From a virus (lineage: Duplodnaviria > Caudoviricetes), in IMG/VR virus record IMGVR_UViG_3300025362_000477: DNA of 64,000 nucleotides. One strand, 5' to 3'. Positions 1 through 9,399 of this stretch are shown piece by piece. The translations under genes were made by a program, and so were the position numbers. The notes under the pieces were generated by a model. That model was not told the DNA's origin. It saw only the letters and a program-made list of their open reading frames with translations, and searched no databases. Position 1 is the first letter of the stretch; each line of letters begins with the position of its first letter.

Positions 1-177
1 TGGAGTAGTCAACCAAAAATCTCTAGTAGAATAAGTTCCAGCTGTCATTGACCCTACTAAAAATTTTGCACCAACCCTAGGCAACGGACCCAGAACTTCA
101 CAAGTATATGGATCAATCGATTCTGTTCTGGAACCCGAAAACCCTTCATTATCTCTTATTCGTCTTAGTGTTGCCAT
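1..177 (-). CDS. hypothetical protein, partial (runs off window start)
   Basis: ATG at 177 with AAGGA-like RBS; open to position 1. Confidence 0.5.
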   Translation of the reverse strand, partial: MATLRRIRDNEGFSGSRTESIDPYTCEVLGPLPRVGAKFLVGSMTAGTYSTRDFWLTTP

Positions 178-194
178 AATATTATCCTTTGAAT

Positions 195-271
195 TGGTAG
201 GCGGAGGTGGAATCGAACCACCGACCTCAACCGTATCAGAGTCGCAATCTAACCAACTGATCTACCCGCCT
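195..271 (-). tRNA. trnI: tRNA-Ile(GAT)
   Basis: Full cloverleaf, anticodon loop CTGATAC, GTTCGA T-loop, encoded CCA. Confidence 0.95.
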
Positions 272-283
272 TTAATATTTATT

Positions 284-691
284 CTAAGAATCTTCGATTC
301 CTTTAACTCCTATCATCATCCAATGATCCAAATCTCCAGACTCTAAAACATTAATTCCCAACCATGCATTATTAGGATTAGGATCATGACATACGATACC
401 ATCTAAATCTATGACAACAGAATGGGTTACAGAATCATATGTTTTACTTGGTACAGTTGCAATAACGTATCCATCAACACTTATTGATTTGGATAACACA
501 TGCCCATTTGGTCGATCTTTACACTTAGGCCAACCGCATCCATAATATTCATATCCATTATCCCTTAAATAATCCCACAACTTTTGGAAATGATCAGGTC
601 CAAGAGTTATAAAATTAGGGACTATATCAATATTCAATTCTAATATACTTGATATACATGCTCGAGTACAATCACCATTATCTTTATCCAC
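284..691 (-). CDS. conserved phage hypothetical protein (DC..AC / HDPNP motifs)
   Basis: ORF track; colinear with minus-strand run. Confidence 0.6.
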   Translation of the reverse strand: MDKDNGDCTRACISSILELNIDIVPNFITLGPDHFQKLWDYLRDNGYEYYGCGWPKCKDRPNGHVLSKSISVDGYVIATVPSKTYDSVTHSVVIDLDGIVCHDPNPNNAWLGINVLESGDLDHWMMIGVKGIEDS

Positions 692-1175
692 TATAATCTG
701 ATCTATTTTTAAGATAATCTGTCTCCATTTTTGATATTCTTATTAATTTGAACTGATAGCATGCTATGTAAAATCCATAACTATGAAGTCTTAAAATTTT
801 GTATGATGCATTTAATTTCCAACTGTCCCACCATCTAAGGGGTAATAACCATATTTTAAACCGTGGATATCTAATGTTTAACATGATAGCACTGTTGTTC
901 TTCCATCTCCTTAGAGAATCCTCAAACCCCTCCAAACTACCATCAGAGAAATGAAAATCAACATCATGAACAGCTGAAAGTTCTATAAAATGTCTAAATA
1001 TCCAAGTCAGAGTATATCGTAAAATTTCCGGAAATGAATCAGGACCAAAGTAATTGAATATTTTTATAAATTCAACATCCGATAATTTATCAAATTCTAA
1101 TGACCTTTCAAGATCCCATTCAATAACATTTTTCTTAGCTTGTAATTTCGATGCAAATTCTAATTTTTTATCCAT
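684..1175 (-). CDS. hypothetical protein (start revised to MDKKLEF)
   Basis: Longer ORF-track version runs through tRNA-Val; ATG at 1175 lies just after the tRNA. Confidence 0.55.
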   Translation of the reverse strand: MDKKLEFASKLQAKKNVIEWDLERSLEFDKLSDVEFIKIFNYFGPDSFPEILRYTLTWIFRHFIELSAVHDVDFHFSDGSLEGFEDSLRRWKNNSAIMLNIRYPRFKIWLLPLRWWDSWKLNASYKILRLHSYGFYIACYQFKLIRISKMETDYLKNRSDYSG

Positions 1176-1191
1176 GATATTTTTACCTCTA

Positions 1192-1268
1192 TGGTAGTCG
1201 GAGTGAGATTCGGACTCACGACAACATGTATGTAAAACAGGAACTCTAACCAACTGAGCTACCCGACT
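1192..1268 (-). tRNA. trnV: tRNA-Val(TAC)
   Basis: Cloverleaf, loop TTTACAT, CCA; one anticodon-stem mismatch and TCC T-loop. Confidence 0.85.
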
Positions 1269-1270
1269 AT

Positions 1271-1720
1271 TTATTGCATAAAAACAATATAATTAAATTT
1301 TTTCATTTGATTTAAATATAAATTGTAAATTTGTTCTTTTTTCTTCTCTGAGAGAAATGATGCACCATCAACTATAATCATATTAAATAGATTCTCATCA
1401 TTATTGATCAAAATTTTACTAAATGCAAAAAATGTAGAAAATCTCGGATATATGCATGGATGAAAAATTGGATCACTCTTAAATCTAATTAATTGATCAT
1501 TATTCTGACATATAACAAGAGCGTTAAATTTATTCTCATTTAATAAAATTTTGATAGCTCGAGTATGACCAACTTGTCTCGAACAACCAATTTTAATAGT
1601 ACAAAATTCTTTTAAATATGCCTTGGGTGAAATTGCATATAATCTAGAGGGACATACCTTTTGAGAATCTGTAGATTCATCTAATAAGAGATTTAAACAT
1701 TCATATATTCTATTACTCAT
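1271..1720 (-). CDS. hypothetical protein with degenerate P-loop-like motifs (RQVGHT, IIVD)
   Basis: ORF track, RBS upstream. Confidence 0.5.
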   Translation of the reverse strand: MSNRIYECLNLLLDESTDSQKVCPSRLYAISPKAYLKEFCTIKIGCSRQVGHTRAIKILLNENKFNALVICQNNDQLIRFKSDPIFHPCIYPRFSTFFAFSKILINNDENLFNMIIVDGASFLSEKKKEQIYNLYLNQMKKFNYIVFMQ

Positions 1721-1762
1721 AGGAACAACTCCTTTTTATACTGACTAATATAATTATATTAT

Positions 1763-2281
1763 TTACATTGAAACGCTATTCTTTCCACCAAAGGTAGATT
1801 CCAATCTACCACCATGTTCTCTAGATAATTGTTCCGCTAACATTCTTGATCTAGCTTCACTCCCATCCAGAATAGCCATGTTTCGTTCTTCAAAATCTTC
1901 CGTTGGTTCAGTTGGTTCAGAACCAACGACCATAGATGCACCACTATTTTGACCTACTGCCATTTCTTCTCGAACAATCTCTGGCAAAACCCCTCTCATT
2001 TTAGCCAATGTTGCTATAACTTGTGCTTGATACCTGGCATCATTCGGAGTGTTCTTATCCATTTCATTAACTGTCCGTGGACTTGATGGGGTTGATGGTC
2101 GAATGACAGTCTCATGTACATATTGTTTTTTCTTCCCAAACTCAACTGGGTCACAATCAAAAAATACCTGTTTACCACTATCAAAAATAACACATCCAAA
2201 TGTTCTAGCTTTGTTATATTTTACAGATTCAACAATATCACCACATTCAGGTATATGTTTCTTTGAAACTATTTTAGCCAT
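1763..2281 (-). CDS. hypothetical protein
   Basis: ORF track, AAGGA RBS. Confidence 0.6.
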   Translation of the reverse strand: MAKIVSKKHIPECGDIVESVKYNKARTFGCVIFDSGKQVFFDCDPVEFGKKKQYVHETVIRPSTPSSPRTVNEMDKNTPNDARYQAQVIATLAKMRGVLPEIVREEMAVGQNSGASMVVGSEPTEPTEDFEERNMAILDGSEARSRMLAEQLSREHGGRLESTFGGKNSVSM

Positions 2282-2490
2282 GATTAAATCCTTTTAATTT
2301 ATTCTAGAATGGAATGAATCCTGACACATCCTTACCTGTTGGGCTACTAACATCATATCCAGAACCAAATAAAGCCTTATCAATAACATCCCATGCGTCT
2401 TGTTCAGTTTCATATTGAACTGGTTTATTACCATACCAACTACCATGTGTATTTACAATATAATTAACTTCTTTCATAGTTATCCTTCAA

Positions 2491-2567
2491 TGGCGGACCG
2501 AGGTGGACTTGAACCACCAACACGGAAATTTTCAGTCTCCTGCTCTGCCGATTGGAGCTACCGATCC
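2491..2567 (-). tRNA. trnF: tRNA-Phe(GAA)
   Basis: Cloverleaf, loop CTGAAAA, CCA. Confidence 0.95.
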
Positions 2568-2731
2568 TTTCAAATTAAACTTTTTTGATCTTTACTGTCT
2601 TAATCTTCCATCCAGTGTAAGGCTTTCTATTACATGCAAACAAATCTATCATAATCATCAATATACAATACATCACGATCTTTATAATTATCAATCTTAT
2701 CCACTGGGCTGGGTTGCGGGCAAAGCCCGTA

Positions 2732-3736
2732 TTAGAATGAATAGCCGAGCCCGAGGATGTAACGGTAATCGCTTTTGTCAAGACCAGCTGCAGGCTTGGA
2801 GTTGTGTTCCATTTCGGCTTTTGCCTCCATGATCCAGCTGCCGACAAGTTTTGTCTGTAAACCGGCATCGGCATAGACGAGGAAGATGTCGCTGCGTTCG
2901 GTGCTGGGCAGGAATGTGACGTTATGGAATGCTTTGACATTCTCCCAGAGCTGCTTGTCCAGGTGATAGGCCAGGCGGATAGCCATATAGTCGCGAGTTT
3001 CAGAGGGATCTGAGTACTCTGCATGTACATATGAGAGGCCTGCCTCTGTGTTGAAGTTAAGATCGTCACTTTCGACCCATTGATAACCAACACCGGCACC
3101 CAGAGTGACGCGCATATCCAGGTTGTTAATACGGTCCTTCTCATAAAGAATGTTTCCGTAGAGGTAGAACTGGTCACTTAAAAAGTAGTCATATTTGCCA
3201 TTGATGAACCACTTGTCTTCGGTTGTGTCGTCCGTACCGGTGGATTGATCGCGTTTCTTGTCAAAGCGGTAGCCAGCTCCAAGGGAGATGCGGTCGTCTT
3301 TACGGCGCAGCTGGGCATTAGCATTAATGCTGGCGGTATCGCTATGTGTATTGCCGCGGGCGAAGTTGGCTCCTGCGACCAGGCTTCCTGTCCATTTCGG
3401 TGCTTCGGGGTTTACTTCGGCAATGTCGGTTAGTGGCAGGGCTGTATTAGATGCTGCCAGGGTTATGGTTCCTGCTTTGGCAGCAACTGTTTTAGTTTCA
3501 ACACGTGTGCCATCAGGCTTTTCAATAGTAATGGATTCATCTGTGGAGAATGTCTGGATGTCATCCATCTTTAACGAGAGTTTGCCTGCGACCTTTGATT
3601 CAAAGGCCATCTTTCCGCCGGAGACTTTCTTAACGGTTCCGGTCAGCTTGTCGCCGGATTTAAAGAGGATTACATCTCCGAACACCGAAAAGGCACTCAG
3701 TAAACCAACAGCTATCCATCCGTAATGTTTGTTCAT
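2732..3736 (-). CDS. DUF481/YdiY-like outer-membrane beta-barrel protein
   Basis: Signal peptide, DVILFKSGDKLTG N-domain, alternating amphipathic strands, C-terminal YILGLGYSF (BAM-type Phe); GC-rich. Confidence 0.85.
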   Translation of the reverse strand: MNKHYGWIAVGLLSAFSVFGDVILFKSGDKLTGTVKKVSGGKMAFESKVAGKLSLKMDDIQTFSTDESITIEKPDGTRVETKTVAAKAGTITLAASNTALPLTDIAEVNPEAPKWTGSLVAGANFARGNTHSDTASINANAQLRRKDDRISLGAGYRFDKKRDQSTGTDDTTEDKWFINGKYDYFLSDQFYLYGNILYEKDRINNLDMRVTLGAGVGYQWVESDDLNFNTEAGLSYVHAEYSDPSETRDYMAIRLAYHLDKQLWENVKAFHNVTFLPSTERSDIFLVYADAGLQTKLVGSWIMEAKAEMEHNSKPAAGLDKSDYRYILGLGYSF

Positions 3737-3757
3737 GTTATTTCCCTTTAATTGTGT

Positions 3758-4054
3758 TTATTCCGTTGAAATCGTTGAAGTTACCACTTGGGACCGCCGG
3801 GCTGATGCATGCTGCCACCGTTTATCAGCAGGGATCCCTATGCGTTTATGTATAACCTTTAATTCAGGATAATTTTCAAGACCTATCTCATACATTTTAA
3901 CTCGTTCAAAATAATCTAATATATCACCCGTTTCTTTTCCATTCTTGTCAATAATTTTAAAATTATATGGGTCATCATCAACTGCTCTAATAAAGAATCC
4001 TACTGGTATACCACGAAATTCCTTTAGCACTTCAAGTTTGTATTCTGTTCTCAT
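3758..4054 (-). CDS. hypothetical protein, C-terminus contributed by GC-rich insert
   Basis: ORF track; composition switches near 3845. Confidence 0.5.
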   Translation of the reverse strand: MRTEYKLEVLKEFRGIPVGFFIRAVDDDPYNFKIIDKNGKETGDILDYFERVKMYEIGLENYPELKVIHKRIGIPADKRWQHASARRSQVVTSTISTE

Positions 4055-4072
4055 TATTGTCCTTTCAATAAA

Positions 4073-4483
4073 TTACCAATATTCTTTATGATCACATCGA
4101 GTACATTTGAAATATGCACCATGCTGGTCAGAATCAACAATTTCCATATCATGACCATTCAATTTGCAATATTCTATTTTTGCTTCTATACGATGCTGTG
4201 TATGATCTATCTTAGCTTGATTGATTTTCTCTACCATACTATATGGGAGATGCATTGTTACTTGCATGGTATCATCGAATGAACCCTTACAAACATCAAC
4301 TTGAATATCCTTAATAGATACTCTAGTAACATGATCCCCAATAGATTTAGCTAAATTCTCCATTTGTTCTTTAGTTATATCATCAGAAAAATAACTATTC
4401 AAACTATCCTTTATATGAGAGCTGATTCTATCAATTATACCTTCTGGAGTTTCAGATTTCAAACTAGCTACATATTTACTCAT
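4073..4483 (-). CDS. hypothetical protein with C-terminal Cys/His cluster
   Basis: ORF track, GGAG RBS. Confidence 0.6.
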   Translation of the reverse strand: MSKYVASLKSETPEGIIDRISSHIKDSLNSYFSDDITKEQMENLAKSIGDHVTRVSIKDIQVDVCKGSFDDTMQVTMHLPYSMVEKINQAKIDHTQHRIEAKIEYCKLNGHDMEIVDSDQHGAYFKCTRCDHKEYW

Positions 4484-4498
4484 TAATTATCTCCAATA

Positions 4499-4573
4499 TG
4501 GGGCGGTATACGGGAATCGGACCCGCGCACGAGGAACCACAGTCCTCTGTTCTACCATTGAACTAATACCGCC
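4499..4573 (-). tRNA. trnH: tRNA-His(GTG)
   Basis: Cloverleaf, loop CTGTGGT, G-1 and C73, CCA. Confidence 0.95.
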
Positions 4574-4607
4574 ATCTTTATTTATTCCTTTAATGTGAAT
4601 CCATTTC

Positions 4608-4823
4608 TCATGAACAATCTCTAGATTCCGCGATATACTGGATTATCTCAATCTCAAGATTTATCTCTCCGATGAATGCTTCATTTTTTTGAATTTCCAA
4701 ATTCATTTCATTTCGTTTAAGTTCAAGTGCTGATCTCTGAGTCATAAGTGATCTGGAAGCTTTATCCAAATTATCAGAATTAGTTAGTTCGTATTTCTTT
4801 TTCATCGTATCTATAATAGACAT
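4608..4823 (-). CDS. hypothetical coiled-coil protein
   Basis: ORF track. Confidence 0.5.
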   Translation of the reverse strand: MSIIDTMKKKYELTNSDNLDKASRSLMTQRSALELKRNEMNLEIQKNEAFIGEINLEIEIIQYIAESRDCS

Positions 4824-4853
4824 ATTAATTTCCTTTTGTTTTGTGTTCAGTGT

Positions 4854-5210
4854 TTATTTTGGAATTTCAGTTTTAAATTTGTGTGTGTTAACTTCTAGTA
4901 GTATATCTAGAAGTTCGAGTGTTTGTAAATCTACTGATGCCTGCCATATATCACCTACTTTAAAATAACGATGTAGATAATATCTAGTCTTAAATTCATA
5001 CTTATGATACCCAGTCTTACTTAAAATTGAATAGAAACAATCATCACAGTCAGGGATATCACATATCAGATCTAGACCAAACTCCCAATGCATTCTAAAT
5101 TCAAGAAGTGGAGTTCTTATTCTTTCAAGTTTTAATGCTTCCCTATTAGACTGATTAATTAATACTTCTTTAATCTCTTCTGATTTTAGTTGTTTTACTT
5201 CCATTGCCAC
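4854..5210 (-). CDS. hypothetical protein
   Basis: ORF track. Confidence 0.55.
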   Translation of the reverse strand: MAMEVKQLKSEEIKEVLINQSNREALKLERIRTPLLEFRMHWEFGLDLICDIPDCDDCFYSILSKTGYHKYEFKTRYYLHRYFKVGDIWQASVDLQTLELLDILLEVNTHKFKTEIPK

Positions 5211-5619
5211 TGGTGGCTATGTCTTCATTCCTATCGGTCCCATCAGTATTCTCCTCAATCTCGTTAAGTATTGTTTCATCTATAAATCCATTTTCAAGTG
5301 CTGAGATATAACAATCATCATCAACAATATCATCTTCTTCATCAAAAATTCCTGGATATTTCTTTTTAGCTTCTGAATACCATTCGTCCTGAGACTTATT
5401 ACATGCAGAATGTTTTTCATTCATCACAGTATACAAAGCTGAGATCTTTAATTGTAATTCTTCAACCTTAACACTTTTCTGTGATACACTAAGTTTATGT
5501 TCATCTAAAAATGCCTGAGTTTCAATCTGTTGTCTTTGGAATTCCTTCTCTACATCACATAATTGCTCATATGTTAAATCTTTATATTGTTCTCGTGCTC
5601 GATCTAATACTTTAGACAT
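5170..5619 (-). CDS. hypothetical acidic coiled-coil protein
   Basis: ORF track, GGAG RBS. Confidence 0.6.
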   Translation of the reverse strand: MSKVLDRAREQYKDLTYEQLCDVEKEFQRQQIETQAFLDEHKLSVSQKSVKVEELQLKISALYTVMNEKHSACNKSQDEWYSEAKKKYPGIFDEEDDIVDDDCYISALENGFIDETILNEIEENTDGTDRNEDIATSGNGSKTTKIRRD

Positions 5620-5640
5620 ATAATTCTCCGATCATAAATA

Positions 5641-5714
5641 TACTCCCGCCGGGATTCGAACCCGGAACACAAGGTTTTAGGGACCTCTGCTCTAGCCAGT
5701 TGAGCTACGAGAGC
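5641..5714 (-). tRNA. tRNA with CTA (amber) anticodon, probably Arg-derived; no encoded CCA
   Basis: Good cloverleaf; anticodon stem GAGGT/ACCTT, loop CCCTAAA gives C33 and CTA at 34-36. Confidence 0.75.
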
Positions 5715-5722
5715 GTTTGAAA

Positions 5723-5938
5723 TCATAGTAATTGTAAATTTGAAAATATCTTTTTGTCAGTTACAGTTGCAATTGCAGTTAATTGATTTCCAATATCAGG
5801 TTCTTTAAATCCAACCCAATCCATGTTTCTTCTAGTCAATTTATCTCCCCAGTTAACCAGACATTCCTCAGAATCAACACTTAAATAAATTAGAGTGCCT
5901 TTCCAATCACCATGCAAGCCATGCATAATATTCATCAA
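5723..5938 (-). CDS. peptidyl-tRNA hydrolase 2-like fragment
   Basis: GTLIYL...FKEPDIGNQLTAIA motif; N-terminal part of the family is absent. Confidence 0.45.
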   Translation of the reverse strand: MMNIMHGLHGDWKGTLIYLSVDSEECLVNWGDKLTRRNMDWVGFKEPDIGNQLTAIATVTDKKIFSNLQLL

Positions 5939-6340
5939 TCATACTATCTCCTCATATGGTATAACTACTGAAAGTGTAGCACAATCTCGATCTTTTCTAT
6001 CTTGCATCTCATTATATTTAGATATGATTGGATTAATAGTATCCAATATTCGATTATGGTCTATCAATATATCTTCATGATTGGATATTAAATGACTATT
6101 AACTGCAACATGAATCATATCAGTTTCAACATCTCGTCTCACCTGATCCAAAAAATCAAAATTCCGATATGATACTTTGGGATTCCGATCTTTAATCTCA
6201 AGATAATTCTTAACATATAATGCTGGATCAAAATCATCAGCAGCAAACTCAGCTATAACTGTATCAGGTTTGAATTTTCTAAACCGAATAACTAACGGTT
6301 TCCATACCCATTCTTTCAAGAATACTACTATATCTATCAT
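5939..6340 (-). CDS. hypothetical protein
   Basis: ORF track, GGAGG RBS. Confidence 0.55.
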   Translation of the reverse strand: MIDIVVFLKEWVWKPLVIRFRKFKPDTVIAEFAADDFDPALYVKNYLEIKDRNPKVSYRNFDFLDQVRRDVETDMIHVAVNSHLISNHEDILIDHNRILDTINPIISKYNEMQDRKDRDCATLSVVIPYEEIV

Positions 6341-6572
6341 ACTTCCCTCCGTAATTGTTTTGTTTCAATTTCAACTTTGAAATTACTATTAATCATACTA
6401 GCAAGATGAAGCCATTTTCATGTGCAGATATCATACCTTCATATGGTTCATCTACTAACTTAACTTCTATTCCTGTATAATATAACATATTAGCAATAAT
6501 ATTAGCTAATGTTGTTTTGCCACTCCCCACTTCACCGGTGATCAATATCTTAACTTTTCTTTTTTCACTCAC
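6337..6572 (-). pseudogene. small P-loop protein, apparently frameshifted at an A-tract (6415-6418)
   Basis: GTG start, ILITGEVGSGKTT Walker A; one extra A restores ...HEKWLHLASMINSNFKVEIETKQLRREV*. Confidence 0.55.
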
Positions 6573-7020
6573 TATACTTCTCCCGAATAAATTTGGCTAT
6601 AGAACTGACTTCTTTACCATCAACAGCAATTCCATTCTTTCTAAAATAAGCCATTGCAGCACCAATAAATTGACCATCTGATTTTGCATCTAAGTGCCGT
6701 AAAATCAAAATCTCAAGCTCATTCTTCACTTCTTCAATACTAAGATTACTAGGAATCCATTCATCATATATTGATATTTCCTTTAACATAATTTCAGTGG
6801 GTTCTCTACCACTCTCTCGTAATATGGAAATATTCTCAGCCACTCCAGCTTTAAATTTTTTAAAAACACTAATAACATTCTCATCAGTGAATTCATTCTT
6901 CTGTCGAAATTTCTTGAGTTCAATTTCACCATAAACAGTTTTTAATATGTTCATTTTCTCAGGATCAGTCTTTTGATATGACCCTATCTGTCCTACTAGA
7001 CATTTAAGTAAATCTGACAT
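6565..7020 (-). CDS. GatB/YqeY domain protein
   Basis: Helical YqeY pattern: VISVFKK...EISIYDEWIP..LS.EEV...FIGAAM...VDGKEVS. Confidence 0.7.
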   Translation of the reverse strand: MSDLLKCLVGQIGSYQKTDPEKMNILKTVYGEIELKKFRQKNEFTDENVISVFKKFKAGVAENISILRESGREPTEIMLKEISIYDEWIPSNLSIEEVKNELEILILRHLDAKSDGQFIGAAMAYFRKNGIAVDGKEVSSIAKFIREKYSE

Positions 7021-7255
7021 AAATCTCCTTTAAGATTATTTCTTTTTTGGTAAAATAATTGGTTTCAATCCCAGTCTAAACTCCTTGCTCTTTCAGCATG
7101 ATGATCACAAGCATACCAATCCGGTTGTTTCTTACTTCCATATAATGGCCCATGAGTATGTGTTGCATGTGCAGCACATCCAAACCAAGAACATAAAATA
7201 ATTCCTTTCTTCTTTCTCATTCTTTTATTCATATAGAACTCCAATCTTTAAAAAA

Positions 7256-7339
7256 TGGTGGTAGAGGGAGGAATCGAACCTCCAAGGCCGAAGCGACAAA
7301 TTTACAGTTTGTGGAGCCCACCACCTGCTCAACTCTACC
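7256..7339 (-). tRNA. trnY: tRNA-Tyr(GTA)
   Basis: Class II cloverleaf, loop CTGTAAA, CCA. Confidence 0.95.
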
Positions 7340-7359
7340 TTTTACTTTATTTATTCTTT

Positions 7360-7710
7360 TTATGTTTTAGTTAATCTTTTTACTTCATTTACCATATCAC
7401 CCATTATAGCTTTCAACCCTTCAGTATCTATATCATTATATGTATGTTTAAAATATGTTGAATTTCCACCCGATGGATATATAGTTACATGAATTAAATC
7501 CTCGCTATTAGTTATCTCAATTCGGAAAGATTTATCATTTATAAGGACATGAGATTCTAACATATACTTAAAAGCATGAAATGATAATTTATAATCACCC
7601 ATATCAAAATTCATTGCTGATTTGGATACATTCAATGTATCTTTAAATAAATCATAAAGCATAATATATTGATGCTTGAATTTGGTCATAGCCATTCTAT
7701 TACCGCTCAT
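7360..7710 (-). CDS. hypothetical protein
   Basis: ORF track. Confidence 0.55.
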   Translation of the reverse strand: MSGNRMAMTKFKHQYIMLYDLFKDTLNVSKSAMNFDMGDYKLSFHAFKYMLESHVLINDKSFRIEITNSEDLIHVTIYPSGGNSTYFKHTYNDIDTEGLKAIMGDMVNEVKRLTKT

Positions 7711-7919
7711 ATTATTTGTCCTGTTTTTTGAATATCAGAAAGTTTAATTGCTAATGCTCCAGTTGAATTACTCACATCCATGAATATAAGTTTCAAAGTT
7801 TTCATCGAGGTTAGATTTGGAAATACAGAACAATCATCAGGTATGTTTTCAAAATCAATCCTGGCATTCTTAGACATTACCTCTAAATCTCTGATATGAG
7901 TTTTTATATCTACAGCCAT
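7707..7919 (-). CDS. hypothetical protein
   Basis: ORF track, GGAG RBS. Confidence 0.5.
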   Translation of the reverse strand: MAVDIKTHIRDLEVMSKNARIDFENIPDDCSVFPNLTSMKTLKLIFMDVSNSTGALAIKLSDIQKTGQII

Positions 7920-8203
7920 TATAATACTCCAATCAATTTTACTTCGTTATCCATCATTATGATTTCACTGATGGCATAAATAGAGAAATACCAAATGTTC
8001 GTTTAGCATATGATATCAAGTGATTCATTCTATAATCACGACGACCTGTTTTAAACCATTCCCTATGTTTTTTCTGTAATTCATTTTTTGTTTTACCTTT
8101 GATTCTCATTTTTAATCTCCTTTTGAAATAAACGCTCCGTGATTAAAACTGGTACACGGAACAAGAAACCCTATCATATGCCATAAGGCAATGAGTAATA
8201 AAA

Positions 8204-8280
8204 TGGCACGCCAAGAGGGATTCGAACCCCCGACCGACGGATTAGAGATCCGCTGCTCTATCCAACTGAGCTACTGGCGT
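8204..8280 (-). tRNA. trnR: tRNA-Arg(TCT) with C33
   Basis: Cloverleaf, A20 in D-loop, loop TCTCTAA, CCA. Confidence 0.9.
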
Positions 8281-8326
8281 ATTTTAATTTATTATGAATT
8301 GTTATAAAACTATCCAACTGAGCTAT

Positions 8327-8590
8327 TTAACAAGTGTACCAATCAGCAATATAATCGGGATTTGAATCTAGAAAATCTCTAAGAGCTAAAACAGCCTCTT
8401 TATACCAATGATTTACACATACAAATTCTCGATCTTCTGAACCGTTGTACAATACCAGACAATGATCATCTTCATTTATTACTGATTGACCACCGTATTG
8501 ATCTTGTAATACGATTAGAGGTGAACCATAACGATCAACATCCCAATTCTTTGGTGTCTCGTCTACTACTTTATACATATCATTTCCCAT
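8327..8590 (-). CDS. hypothetical protein
   Basis: ORF track. Confidence 0.55.
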   Translation of the reverse strand: MGNDMYKVVDETPKNWDVDRYGSPLIVLQDQYGGQSVINEDDHCLVLYNGSEDREFVCVNHWYKEAVLALRDFLDSNPDYIADWYTC

Positions 8591-8602
8591 TTAAAAAGTG
8601 AA

Positions 8603-8640
8603 ACTTAGACTCGTTCGCTCGCCACTACTAAAGTCTAAGT
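8603..8640 (-). ncRNA. hairpin displaying a 23S rRNA-like segment AGTAGTGGCGAGCGAACG
   Basis: Perfect 9-bp stem 8603-8611/8632-8640; loop matches a conserved LSU rRNA motif recalled from memory. Confidence 0.55.
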
Positions 8641-8661
8641 ATCTATCAGGTGGACCTGATA

Positions 8662-9399
8662 TTAATTATCATCTGGAACATCATGTACGATCGGTGCACA
8701 TGGATTCAAGCTAGTGGATGCACTGACACCCACACATTTATGATTTTTGATCTTTTCTATACCTTCCGCCATAACGTCGCTCATAGTTGATGTATCATCT
8801 ACTGGAACATCAGCATCTGCATCCAATATACCATCAGCCATAGCTTGCTCGATTACAGAAGGTTTCTGTGATTTACAAGTACAGCATCCACAACTACATT
8901 TCTTTTCTTCATAATTATCATCAACAATCTCAGCATCATCATATAACTCAAAAGTAAACTTAGTATTTTCAAGTCGTAGAGGTTTTGATTCAATTAGATT
9001 GTATGCAAAGATAATGTTCAGAATAGTTGGAACATTTGCAAAAGGCAGTATTGCAATGTAAGAAATATCCACGTCACATGGATTTGGCTCAGATTCTTTT
9101 GATTCCGCCATCAATTTTTCAAAATCTCTAATCCGGCGAAGACAATTAACTTTACCTTCAGCCTTACAGAATGAATCTTTAGGACTACAGAAAGAGAATG
9201 CGGCAACCAAATAATTCCCATTTCTAATTCGTTTCGTTACTGCTGTCACATAATAGCCCCGTGGAGCCTTGTAATAAGAGAATCTAAGATCATCCATATC
9301 ATGGTGTGATAGAAGTTCTTTAAGTTCAGTTTTTCTGATCTCAGAAGGTTTTGGCTTTTTCTCATATTGAGTGCCATTAATATTTTTATCATTTTCCAT
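8662..9399 (-). CDS. hypothetical protein (FSFCSPKD.F.K.EG motif)
   Basis: ORF track; start revised to MENDK (RBS AAGGA). Confidence 0.6.
   Translation of the reverse strand: MENDKNINGTQYEKKPKPSEIRKTELKELLSHHDMDDLRFSYYKAPRGYYVTAVTKRIRNGNYLVAAFSFCSPKDSFCKAEGKVNCLRRIRDFEKLMAESKESEPNPCDVDISYIAILPFANVPTILNIIFAYNLIESKPLRLENTKFTFELYDDAEIVDDNYEEKKCSCGCCTCKSQKPSVIEQAMADGILDADADVPVDDTSTMSDVMAEGIEKIKNHKCVGVSASTSLNPCAPIVHDVPDDN

Follow-up and report, generated by a model that had tools for sequence, protein, structure and literature searches.

That huge phages encode beta-barrel outer-membrane proteins is known already. A 2026 preprint reported 1,603 such proteins, with 6 to 22 strands, in 1,303 huge phages and described gene exchange between these phages and their hosts (10.64898/2026.10.24.761521). 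The barrels were usually closest to homologues of the predicted host and were partly transcribed, and receptor blocking like that of Lom was discussed; Lom of phage lambda is cited there as blocking LamB against superinfection (10.64898/2026.10.24.761521). Among the outer-membrane protein families of bacteria, DUF481/YdiY (PF04338; TCDB 1.B.75) has 12 strands and a mean length of 277 +/- 41 amino acids (PMC4827864). YdiY of E. coli is among the ten most expressed outer-membrane proteins and its family is without known function (10.1101/2024.12.09.627556). Here we describe a gene of this family in a stretch of 64,000 nucleotides (nt), hereafter the window, from the IMG/VR virus record IMGVR_UViG_3300025362_000477 (Duplodnaviria; Caudoviricetes). 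The window is C1:13546-77545, minus strand, of this 141,546-bp record, which has a CheckV completeness of 44%. We consider it likely that the tRNA region of this jumbo phage acquired a 1.13-kb piece of a Kiritimatiellia chromosome very recently, and that this brought in one complete outer-membrane protein gene for which read-through transcription is likely.

The protein encoded by this gene resembles DUF481/YdiY proteins in its full-length Pfam match, its predicted 12-stranded barrel, its signal peptide and its terminal aromatic residue. Unlike them, it has an extra domain of about 90 residues, consisting of two SH3-like barrels, ahead of the barrel and it is phage-encoded. Like the barrels of the huge phages, it is a signal-peptide beta-barrel that is most closely related to proteins of the lineage predicted as the host. 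However, the barrels in the preprint are distant from the host copies, as shown by the OmpA of a Lak phage with 25.6% identity (10.64898/2026.10.24.761521), whereas here the DNA identity to a copy in another context is 99.5% and a scar of the donor's neighbouring gene is present. Also in contrast to the huge-phage barrels, no transport gene lies beside the gene in this phage, and the main text of the preprint mentions neither DUF481 nor Kiritimatiellia (10.64898/2026.10.24.761521). As with lambda Lom and other prophage 'morons' for outer-membrane proteins, a host-like gene of this type has been added to the phage genome as an accessory that takes no part in making virions. Lom, on the other hand, is 8-stranded and is expressed from the prophage of a temperate phage, whereas the present protein is 12-stranded with an extra domain and has no sequence relation to Lom, and nothing points to lysogeny in the present phage, which encodes an RNA polymerase of its own. 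No new mechanism is shown here; new are the protein family, DUF481 with tandem SH3-like domains, the class to which the host belongs, and how fresh the event is, the donor-type allele and the scar both being still present.

The window is phage DNA because it holds 21 tRNA genes and a transfer-messenger RNA (tmRNA) gene, 22 genes that are all on the minus strand (ARAGORN), and because it has PHROG matches to the multisubunit RNA polymerase beta/beta', a helicase, a tRNA nucleotidyltransferase and phrog_1735 (expectation value, E, 6e-225). A protein identical to the DUF481 protein is recorded on two contigs, the longer one of 230 kb; therefore, jumbo size is supported, in line with the multisubunit polymerase, the tRNA genes and the tmRNA, and the phage genome is probably larger than 200 kb. 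An earlier note, made from the letters of the window alone, had also taken this for a jumbo-type phage.

The captured fragment, or island (2701..3833, about 1.13 kb), was delimited as a GC outlier and by DNA homology. Its GC content is 49.6% as compared to 35.4% and 32.4% in the 1-kb flanks. The contrast on which the earlier note relied was exact when recomputed, with 32 G+C in 60 nt at 3241-3300 and 14 in 60 nt at 4801-4860. Across the 141,546-bp contig as a whole, GC in 600-nt windows has a mean of 0.325 and a standard deviation (SD) of 0.036, and the only windows above the mean plus 3 SD are those overlapping 2446-3945, where GC peaks at 0.51. The borders were placed at 2701 and 3844 by a two-state likelihood fit and at about 2701-2707 and 3833 by homology. 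The GC content at third codon positions (GC3) of the DUF481 gene is 0.54 as against 0.16-0.24 in nine neighbouring phage genes, and the GC skew of the plus strand is +0.08 in the island as against -0.24 to -0.29 in the flanks. The insertion site is within the tRNA region of the phage, and the first phage feature downstream of the island is a tRNA-Phe gene (2491..2567, minus strand; ARAGORN).

The DUF481 gene (2732..3736, minus strand) is intact and its stop codon is at 2732-2734. The stretch that is homologous to Kiritimatiellia loci at the DNA level begins about 97 nt before its ATG and reaches its stop codon. In L025/L038, the gene upstream of the DUF481 gene encodes a sulfatase of 629 amino acids with PF00884, SGSH_C and HEAT domains, which ends in ALLQNGGSMHQPGGPKW before the stop, and its relatives end in close variants of this tail. 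When the island was translated in the donor frame, positions 3781..3834 (minus strand) gave the last 17 codons and the stop of such a sulfatase, SLLINGGSMHQPGGPKW, and a stop codon at the junction directly precedes this peptide. The captured piece therefore comprises the final 52 nt of the sulfatase gene at one end and about 25-30 nt beyond the DUF481 stop codon at the other. Next to this scar are two copies of a 9-bp spacer repeat of the donor lineage, CTTCAACGA TTTCAACGG (3763..3780, minus strand), which was recognized from arrays of the unit in relatives. The unit, TTCAACCNN, is found upstream of the DUF481 gene in 40.7 copies in L002 (9607-9972), in about 8 copies in L003, in 2-4 copies in L023, L024 and L025, and in 2 copies in the phage. 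Thus, the donor upstream region that had been said to be included in the island can be specified as the 3' end of the neighbouring sulfatase gene plus a spacer. As a side observation, the TTCAACCNN array could act as a promoter or spacer element of variable copy number, or could provide several binding sites for a regulator.

The sulfatase and DUF481 genes were found as a pair on at least seven contigs when the two protein sets were matched by equal contig size. Since seven sulfatase matches are on contigs that match DUF481 contigs, the pair is conserved. The other neighbours of the DUF481 gene in the donor loci are housekeeping genes and these differ from contig to contig; what recurs is a two-gene module. 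The sulfatases paired with DUF481 (L038:7676-9565; P0123-P0134) have a C-terminal HEAT-repeat region and a conserved tail, ...RTW.LL..GGSMH.PGG..W.

On the phage side of the upstream junction is open reading frame (ORF) 3758..4054 (minus strand), a phage ORFan whose tail is in captured DNA. Its last 25 codons and stop (3758-3835) are out of the sulfatase frame and it stops 21 nt before the DUF481 ATG. No homologue of this ORF was found, its sole match among 1.84 billion representatives being itself. It had been suggested that the island replaced the 3' end of this ORF. The tail that the ORF now has is indeed captured sequence in another frame, and an original end may have been lost to it. For an empty-site comparison, and to find the original end of ORF 3758-4054, relatives of the flanking phage ORFs were sought in IMG/VR and there were none.

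The donor was traced by homology searches and phylogeny, as the earlier note had proposed. Among the 419 homologues of the DUF481 protein that were found, the best named ones are from Kiritimatiellia, namely metagenome-assembled genomes with 60-68% identity to the phage protein. Whole-genome searches yielded six Kiritimatiellia species representatives at 61-69% (G001, G302-G306) and all others at 57% or less, while a scan of metagenome contigs gave relatives of only 60-61% and a scan of genome contigs gave one relative of 68%. The closest metagenome proteins are P0001 with 99% identity and others with 88, 85, 78 and 74%. In the maximum-likelihood tree the phage protein forms a clade with P0001, P0002 and P0003, supported by a Shimodaira-Hasegawa-like approximate likelihood ratio test (SH-aLRT) value of 95. 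This clade is nested in a clade of 27 rows (SH-aLRT 99) whose named members are all Kiritimatiellia, and the rows labelled Lentisphaerae and Planctomycetota fall outside of it. The DUF481 genes of the donor clade have a GC3 of 0.49-0.63 in loci of 47-54% GC. The GC3 of the island gene is within this range and therefore there has been no amelioration. Judged from these comparisons, a Kiritimatiellia bacterium as the donor, and this lineage as the probable host of the phage, is well supported, and such a host would be Gram-negative as had been expected.

Logan contigs from four runs (X1-X4) were placed on the window; these are contigs rather than raw reads. The island is present in two contigs of X3, which depart from the phage at 6 positions out of about 1,130 (3089, 3090, 3102, 3197, 3692 and 3763). 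The 1,379-nt contig of X3 matches the phage at 3209-3833 only and then continues for 754 nt that are unlike the phage. X3 has little or no cover over most of the phage flanks, a gap on which no conclusion is based. A copy with 99.5% DNA identity is thus present in a different context, and it ceases to resemble the phage where the junction was predicted. The two amino-acid changes in X3, L212P and V216A, match P0001 exactly; this protein is recorded on an 8.8-kb NCBI/ENA contig. The synonymous divergence (dS) between the phage copy and the X3 copy is 0.0135. The ratio of nonsynonymous to synonymous divergence (dN/dS) is 0.19, a value from five coding changes that has no power, and in family pairs it is 0.11-0.15. 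Comparison with outgroups showed that L212 and V216 are the derived states and that they arose in the phage. The earlier note had called the fragment recently captured from the host; both capture and recency are well supported, because a 99.5% identical copy is found in another context and because the GC content has not ameliorated. A separate observation concerns 3089-3102, where codon 216 changed from GCC to GTT and codon 212 from CCG to CTG, that is, three C-to-T changes on the coding strand within 14 nt. These three phage-derived changes may be one clustered event, for example deamination of single-stranded DNA.

The other three runs bear on the junctions. In X1, the probable source run, a 65.6-kb Logan contig covers 1-9000 with 0 differences, so that the same reads gave this result with a second assembler. 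X2 belongs to a different sample and study, and one of its contigs, of 462 nt (3745-4206), bridges the upstream junction with 0 differences, and in X4 a 354-nt contig (2518-2871) bridges the downstream junction with 0 differences. It had been stated that junctions spanned by no reads would mean a chimeric assembly; both are bridged by contigs from other samples. The phage allele of the island is present in contigs of three samples dated 2017-2018. A contig joining across the island, as expected of an island-less phage variant, was not listed in any of the four runs, in which cover was thin.

A second line of evidence for the host comes from outside the island. The tmRNA gene of the phage (16324..16689, minus strand; ARAGORN, and Rfam RF00023 with 118 bits) encodes the tag GNTEFAMAA. 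Tags were read in three (G302, G303 and G305) of the six genomes with the closest DUF481 homologues, and these are ANNSYAMAA, ANNSYAMAA and ANDSYAMAA, so that AMAA is the ending in 3 of 3. Tag endings of the ALAA type are the usual kind. Nearly all other Kiritimatiellia tags end in ALAA, including ANTEFALAA, which was seen twice in a class-wide sample. The AMAA ending was found in none of 25 other relatives of G001 and in none of 30 genomes of the class-wide Kiritimatiellia sample (0 of 55 other Kiritimatiellia in total). Since the census was of Kiritimatiellia genomes only, the specificity of AMAA holds within the class. The whole tmRNA of the phage is merely 56-58% identical to Kiritimatiellia tmRNAs and its informative part is the tag ending alone. 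The nine-residue form of the tag together with the rare AMAA ending therefore shows that the tmRNA points to the same clade as the island does. The handle for host prediction that the island was said to offer leads to this Kiritimatiellia clade, and it is backed independently by the tag. AMAA as opposed to ALAA tags mark one Kiritimatiellia clade (G302, G303 and G305; loci L041, L042 and L085) and the phage, and may be a host marker for tmRNA-bearing phages. When 20 kb of phage DNA were compared to 101 Kiritimatiellia genomes for links of the CRISPR (clustered regularly interspaced short palindromic repeats) type, only marginal matches of 26-41 nt were obtained. The one that was checked further, of 31 nt and at two loci of G304, is not part of a repeat array.

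How the piece might have entered the phage was considered next. The ends of the island were searched for target-site duplications, terminal inverted or direct repeats, and attC-like sites, and none were found. Since there are no flanking repeats or attC-like sites, illegitimate joining during infection would be the simplest route. An integron-type cassette was also considered and was rejected because no attC-like inverted repeat is present at the borders. We propose that a piece of the host-lineage chromosome joined the tRNA region of the phage by illegitimate, that is, non-homologous, recombination. The piece would have started in the last 52 nt of the sulfatase gene and carried the spacer of 9-bp repeats and exactly one complete gene, and its insertion would have fused an out-of-frame tail to the preceding phage ORF 3758-4054.

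The DUF481 gene runs in the direction of all the phage genes and tRNAs around it. Its ATG, with a ribosome-binding site of the AGGGA type, follows the stop of the preceding ORF closely (21 nt). Because of this orientation and this position, read-through transcription from phage promoters, probably by the phage's own polymerase, is the most likely way in which the gene would be expressed. A hairpin after the DUF481 stop codon folds no better than shuffled sequences (z -0.9). The protein would then be exported by Sec and inserted by the beta-barrel assembly machinery (BAM) as an extra copy of a channel-type protein of the host. As in a phage 'moron', the gene is within the phage genome, as seen from the bridged junctions, and is of cellular origin by phylogeny, composition and synteny. 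It may be a 'moron' of recent origin which is by now widespread in the phage population that was sampled but has been under selection only briefly so far, and a benefit to the phage is possible.

Several observations weigh against this account of a recent capture from a Kiritimatiellia host followed by expression in the phage. A search of full-length and shorter proteins for a sulfatase that ends exactly in SLLINGGSMHQPGGPKW yielded close variants of this tail only. The GC content of the phage, 32.5%, is far from the approximately 47-54% of the putative host lineage and this gap is large for a phage-host pair. We infer, rather than see, the bacterial context of the near-identical copy (X3 / P0001). 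Position 212 is Pro in at least 90% of 88 homologues and so, with the change P212L, the phage protein may be impaired. Finally, consensus promoter and terminator scans gave nothing above chance.

The features of the protein itself agree with a secreted outer-membrane protein. The gene is predicted to encode 334 amino acids, and the Pfam DUF481 profile (PF04338, E 4e-50) matches with 171.1 bits against a cut-off of 21.1, with residues 121-334 corresponding to positions 3-210 of the 210 in the profile. Residues 1-20 (3677..3736, minus strand) read by inspection as a signal peptide, MNKHYGWIAVGLLSAFSVFG, without a lipobox Cys. The first mature residue after it, D21, is invariant in 88 homologues, as is F334 in the C-terminus ...LGLGYSF, which was also read by inspection. 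Thus, the barrel of the DUF481/YdiY kind, the intact leader and the terminal Phe that had been reported earlier are all present. The AlphaFold2 model of the full protein, which was built on 88 homologues, has a mean predicted local distance difference test (pLDDT) score of 89.4. It contains a leader helix of low confidence (residues 5-15), then ten short strands within residues 21-101, and finally twelve long ones that span residues 115-333. Residues 21-110 (3407..3676, minus strand) form the N-terminal domain, which is predicted to be two tandem small SH3/Sm-like beta-barrels (domain model pLDDT 91.7). This domain matched no Pfam family and gave only generic small-barrel matches (Hfq/Sm, SH3, Tudor and YgdR, Z up to 7.2), which cover its residues 1-48 and 47-91; since these matches are generic, no function follows from them. 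Residues 111-334 (2735..3406, minus strand) form the beta-barrel, with 12 strands by DSSP and a C-terminal beta-signal ...YSF.

When the barrel was compared to solved structures by VIA-align, the Z scores were 18.2 for Tsx, 17.7 for PcoB, 16.7 for NanC, 16.5 for VhGalP and 16.1 for KdgM, and Foldseek agrees with this. It superposes on Tsx, NanC, KdgM and VhGalP at Z 16-18 with a root-mean-square deviation of 3.2-3.8 over 170-201 residues, but the sequence identity to these is only 8-13% and these channels lack N-terminal SH3-like domains. Autotransporter barrels, PcoB and OMPLA score nearly as high, and therefore these matches reflect a shared fold and are not evidence for a substrate. Acidic oligosaccharides are the substrates that NanC, KdgM and VhGalP let through, and this is loosely consistent with a sulfatase gene next to the DUF481 gene in the donors. 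That the host-encoded DUF481 protein may pass sulfated-glycan fragments is a reasonable guess for its native function, because of the conserved sulfatase partner in the donors and the channel-like fold of the model.

The question then is whether the phage gains anything from the gene. The earlier note had favoured remodelling of the outer membrane, in which the extra protein alters the surface of the infected cell and so the phage keeps the gene. This could be by masking of or competition for a receptor (superinfection exclusion), by a vesicle decoy, or by an uptake channel for sulfated-glycan fragments that feed the infection. We regard such a role as possible but doubtful. In its favour, nothing is missing from the gene, which has a leader, a beta-signal and a ribosome-binding site and lies in the direction of phage transcription; the same allele is in contigs of three samples from 2017-2018; the barrel resembles the substrate-specific 12-stranded channels Tsx, NanC, KdgM and VhGalP (Z 16-18); and the gene is paired with a sulfatase in the donors. 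In addition, beta-barrel outer-membrane proteins were reported for 18% of huge phages, with transcription of some, and receptor blocking of the Lom type has been cited (10.64898/2026.10.24.761521). However, no other phage record has DUF481, and thus there is no sign of long-term retention: tblastn found it in 0 of 50,697 GenBank phage records, IMG/VR had 0 with a single query and with a profile, and there is no PHROG family. The capture is also so young (dS 0.0135) that the presence of the gene says little on selection, and with it came useless DNA, the sulfatase scar, and a phage ORF was altered. Further, P212L is at a near-invariant residue, the dN/dS of 0.19 against 0.11-0.15 in the family is powerless with 5 changes, and there is no partner transport gene beside the DUF481 gene in the phage. 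A more specific and unlikely version is that the phage uses the just-captured channel to alter the surface or the uptake of infected Kiritimatiellia, for example by masking of its own receptor or increased import of sulfated-glycan fragments, and that P212L and A216V are first adaptive steps. If this is true, the two alleles, 6 nt apart, are a natural before-and-after pair for a host gene becoming a phage gene.

The opposite fate, that the gene is a dead passenger which is already non-functional, either because P212L and A216V impair folding or insertion or because it is never expressed, and which will be lost, seems to us quite improbable. Both amino-acid differences are derived in the phage and one of them replaces the Pro that at least 90% of 88 homologues have at this position; a 14-nt stretch holds all three nucleotide changes behind them, each C-to-T on the coding strand; and there is no promoter signal. 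Against this, the frame is open across all 334 codons, AlphaFold2 is confident on the phage sequence with means of 93-98 for 10-residue blocks over residues 201-230, and dN/dS has no measurable rise.

Much weaker still is the possibility that the direction was opposite or indirect: the bacteria may owe the gene to the phage, or bacteria and phage alike may owe it to a third mobile element. What would allow for this is that the context of the 99.5% identical copy is known only indirectly. On the other hand, the gene is deep within the Kiritimatiellia clade and has the GC and the codon usage of those genomes, the conserved sulfatase-DUF481 pair is on at least seven bacterial contigs whereas the phage holds only a truncated sulfatase end, and no repeats or mobile-element genes are present at the ends of the island. 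We therefore consider this very improbable and retain transfer from the bacterium to the phage. Lastly, an assembly chimera, in which bacterial reads were joined wrongly into a phage contig, would account for the sharp compositional break and would be helped by the occurrence of phage and donor-like sequence together in the same lake metagenomes, but it is largely refuted already and can practically be dismissed because the second assembler (Logan) spans 1-9000 in the source run, the 462-nt and 354-nt contigs of separate samples each run across one junction without a difference, two contigs including the one of 230 kb carry the identical protein, and the phage and non-phage alleles differ at 6 fixed positions.

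With a capture from Kiritimatiellia as the preferred explanation, the orphan lineage of this large uncultured salt-lake phage gains a host by two independent lines, the captured DNA and the AMAA tag, which lead to one Kiritimatiellia clade. In a limited literature search no paper was found that links huge phages to Kiritimatiellia. The locus is also an unusually clean snapshot of a host-to-phage capture, with a donor-type allele in the same lake system, 99.5% identity and an intact scar, and the rate, the mechanism and the early fate of such captures become measurable in time-series metagenomes. DUF481 joins the types of outer-membrane proteins that are seen in huge phages.

Two minor observations were made elsewhere in the window. 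Among the phage tRNAs is one at 5641-5714 with a CUA anticodon, of the amber-suppressor type, which ARAGORN labels as tRNA-Pyl. In all four runs the contig depth climbs to hundreds at 1231-1262 and 8203-8260, in the tRNA-Val and tRNA-Arg genes, where many foreign contigs join; these are conserved tRNA segments that are common to other organisms and are not phage-specific.

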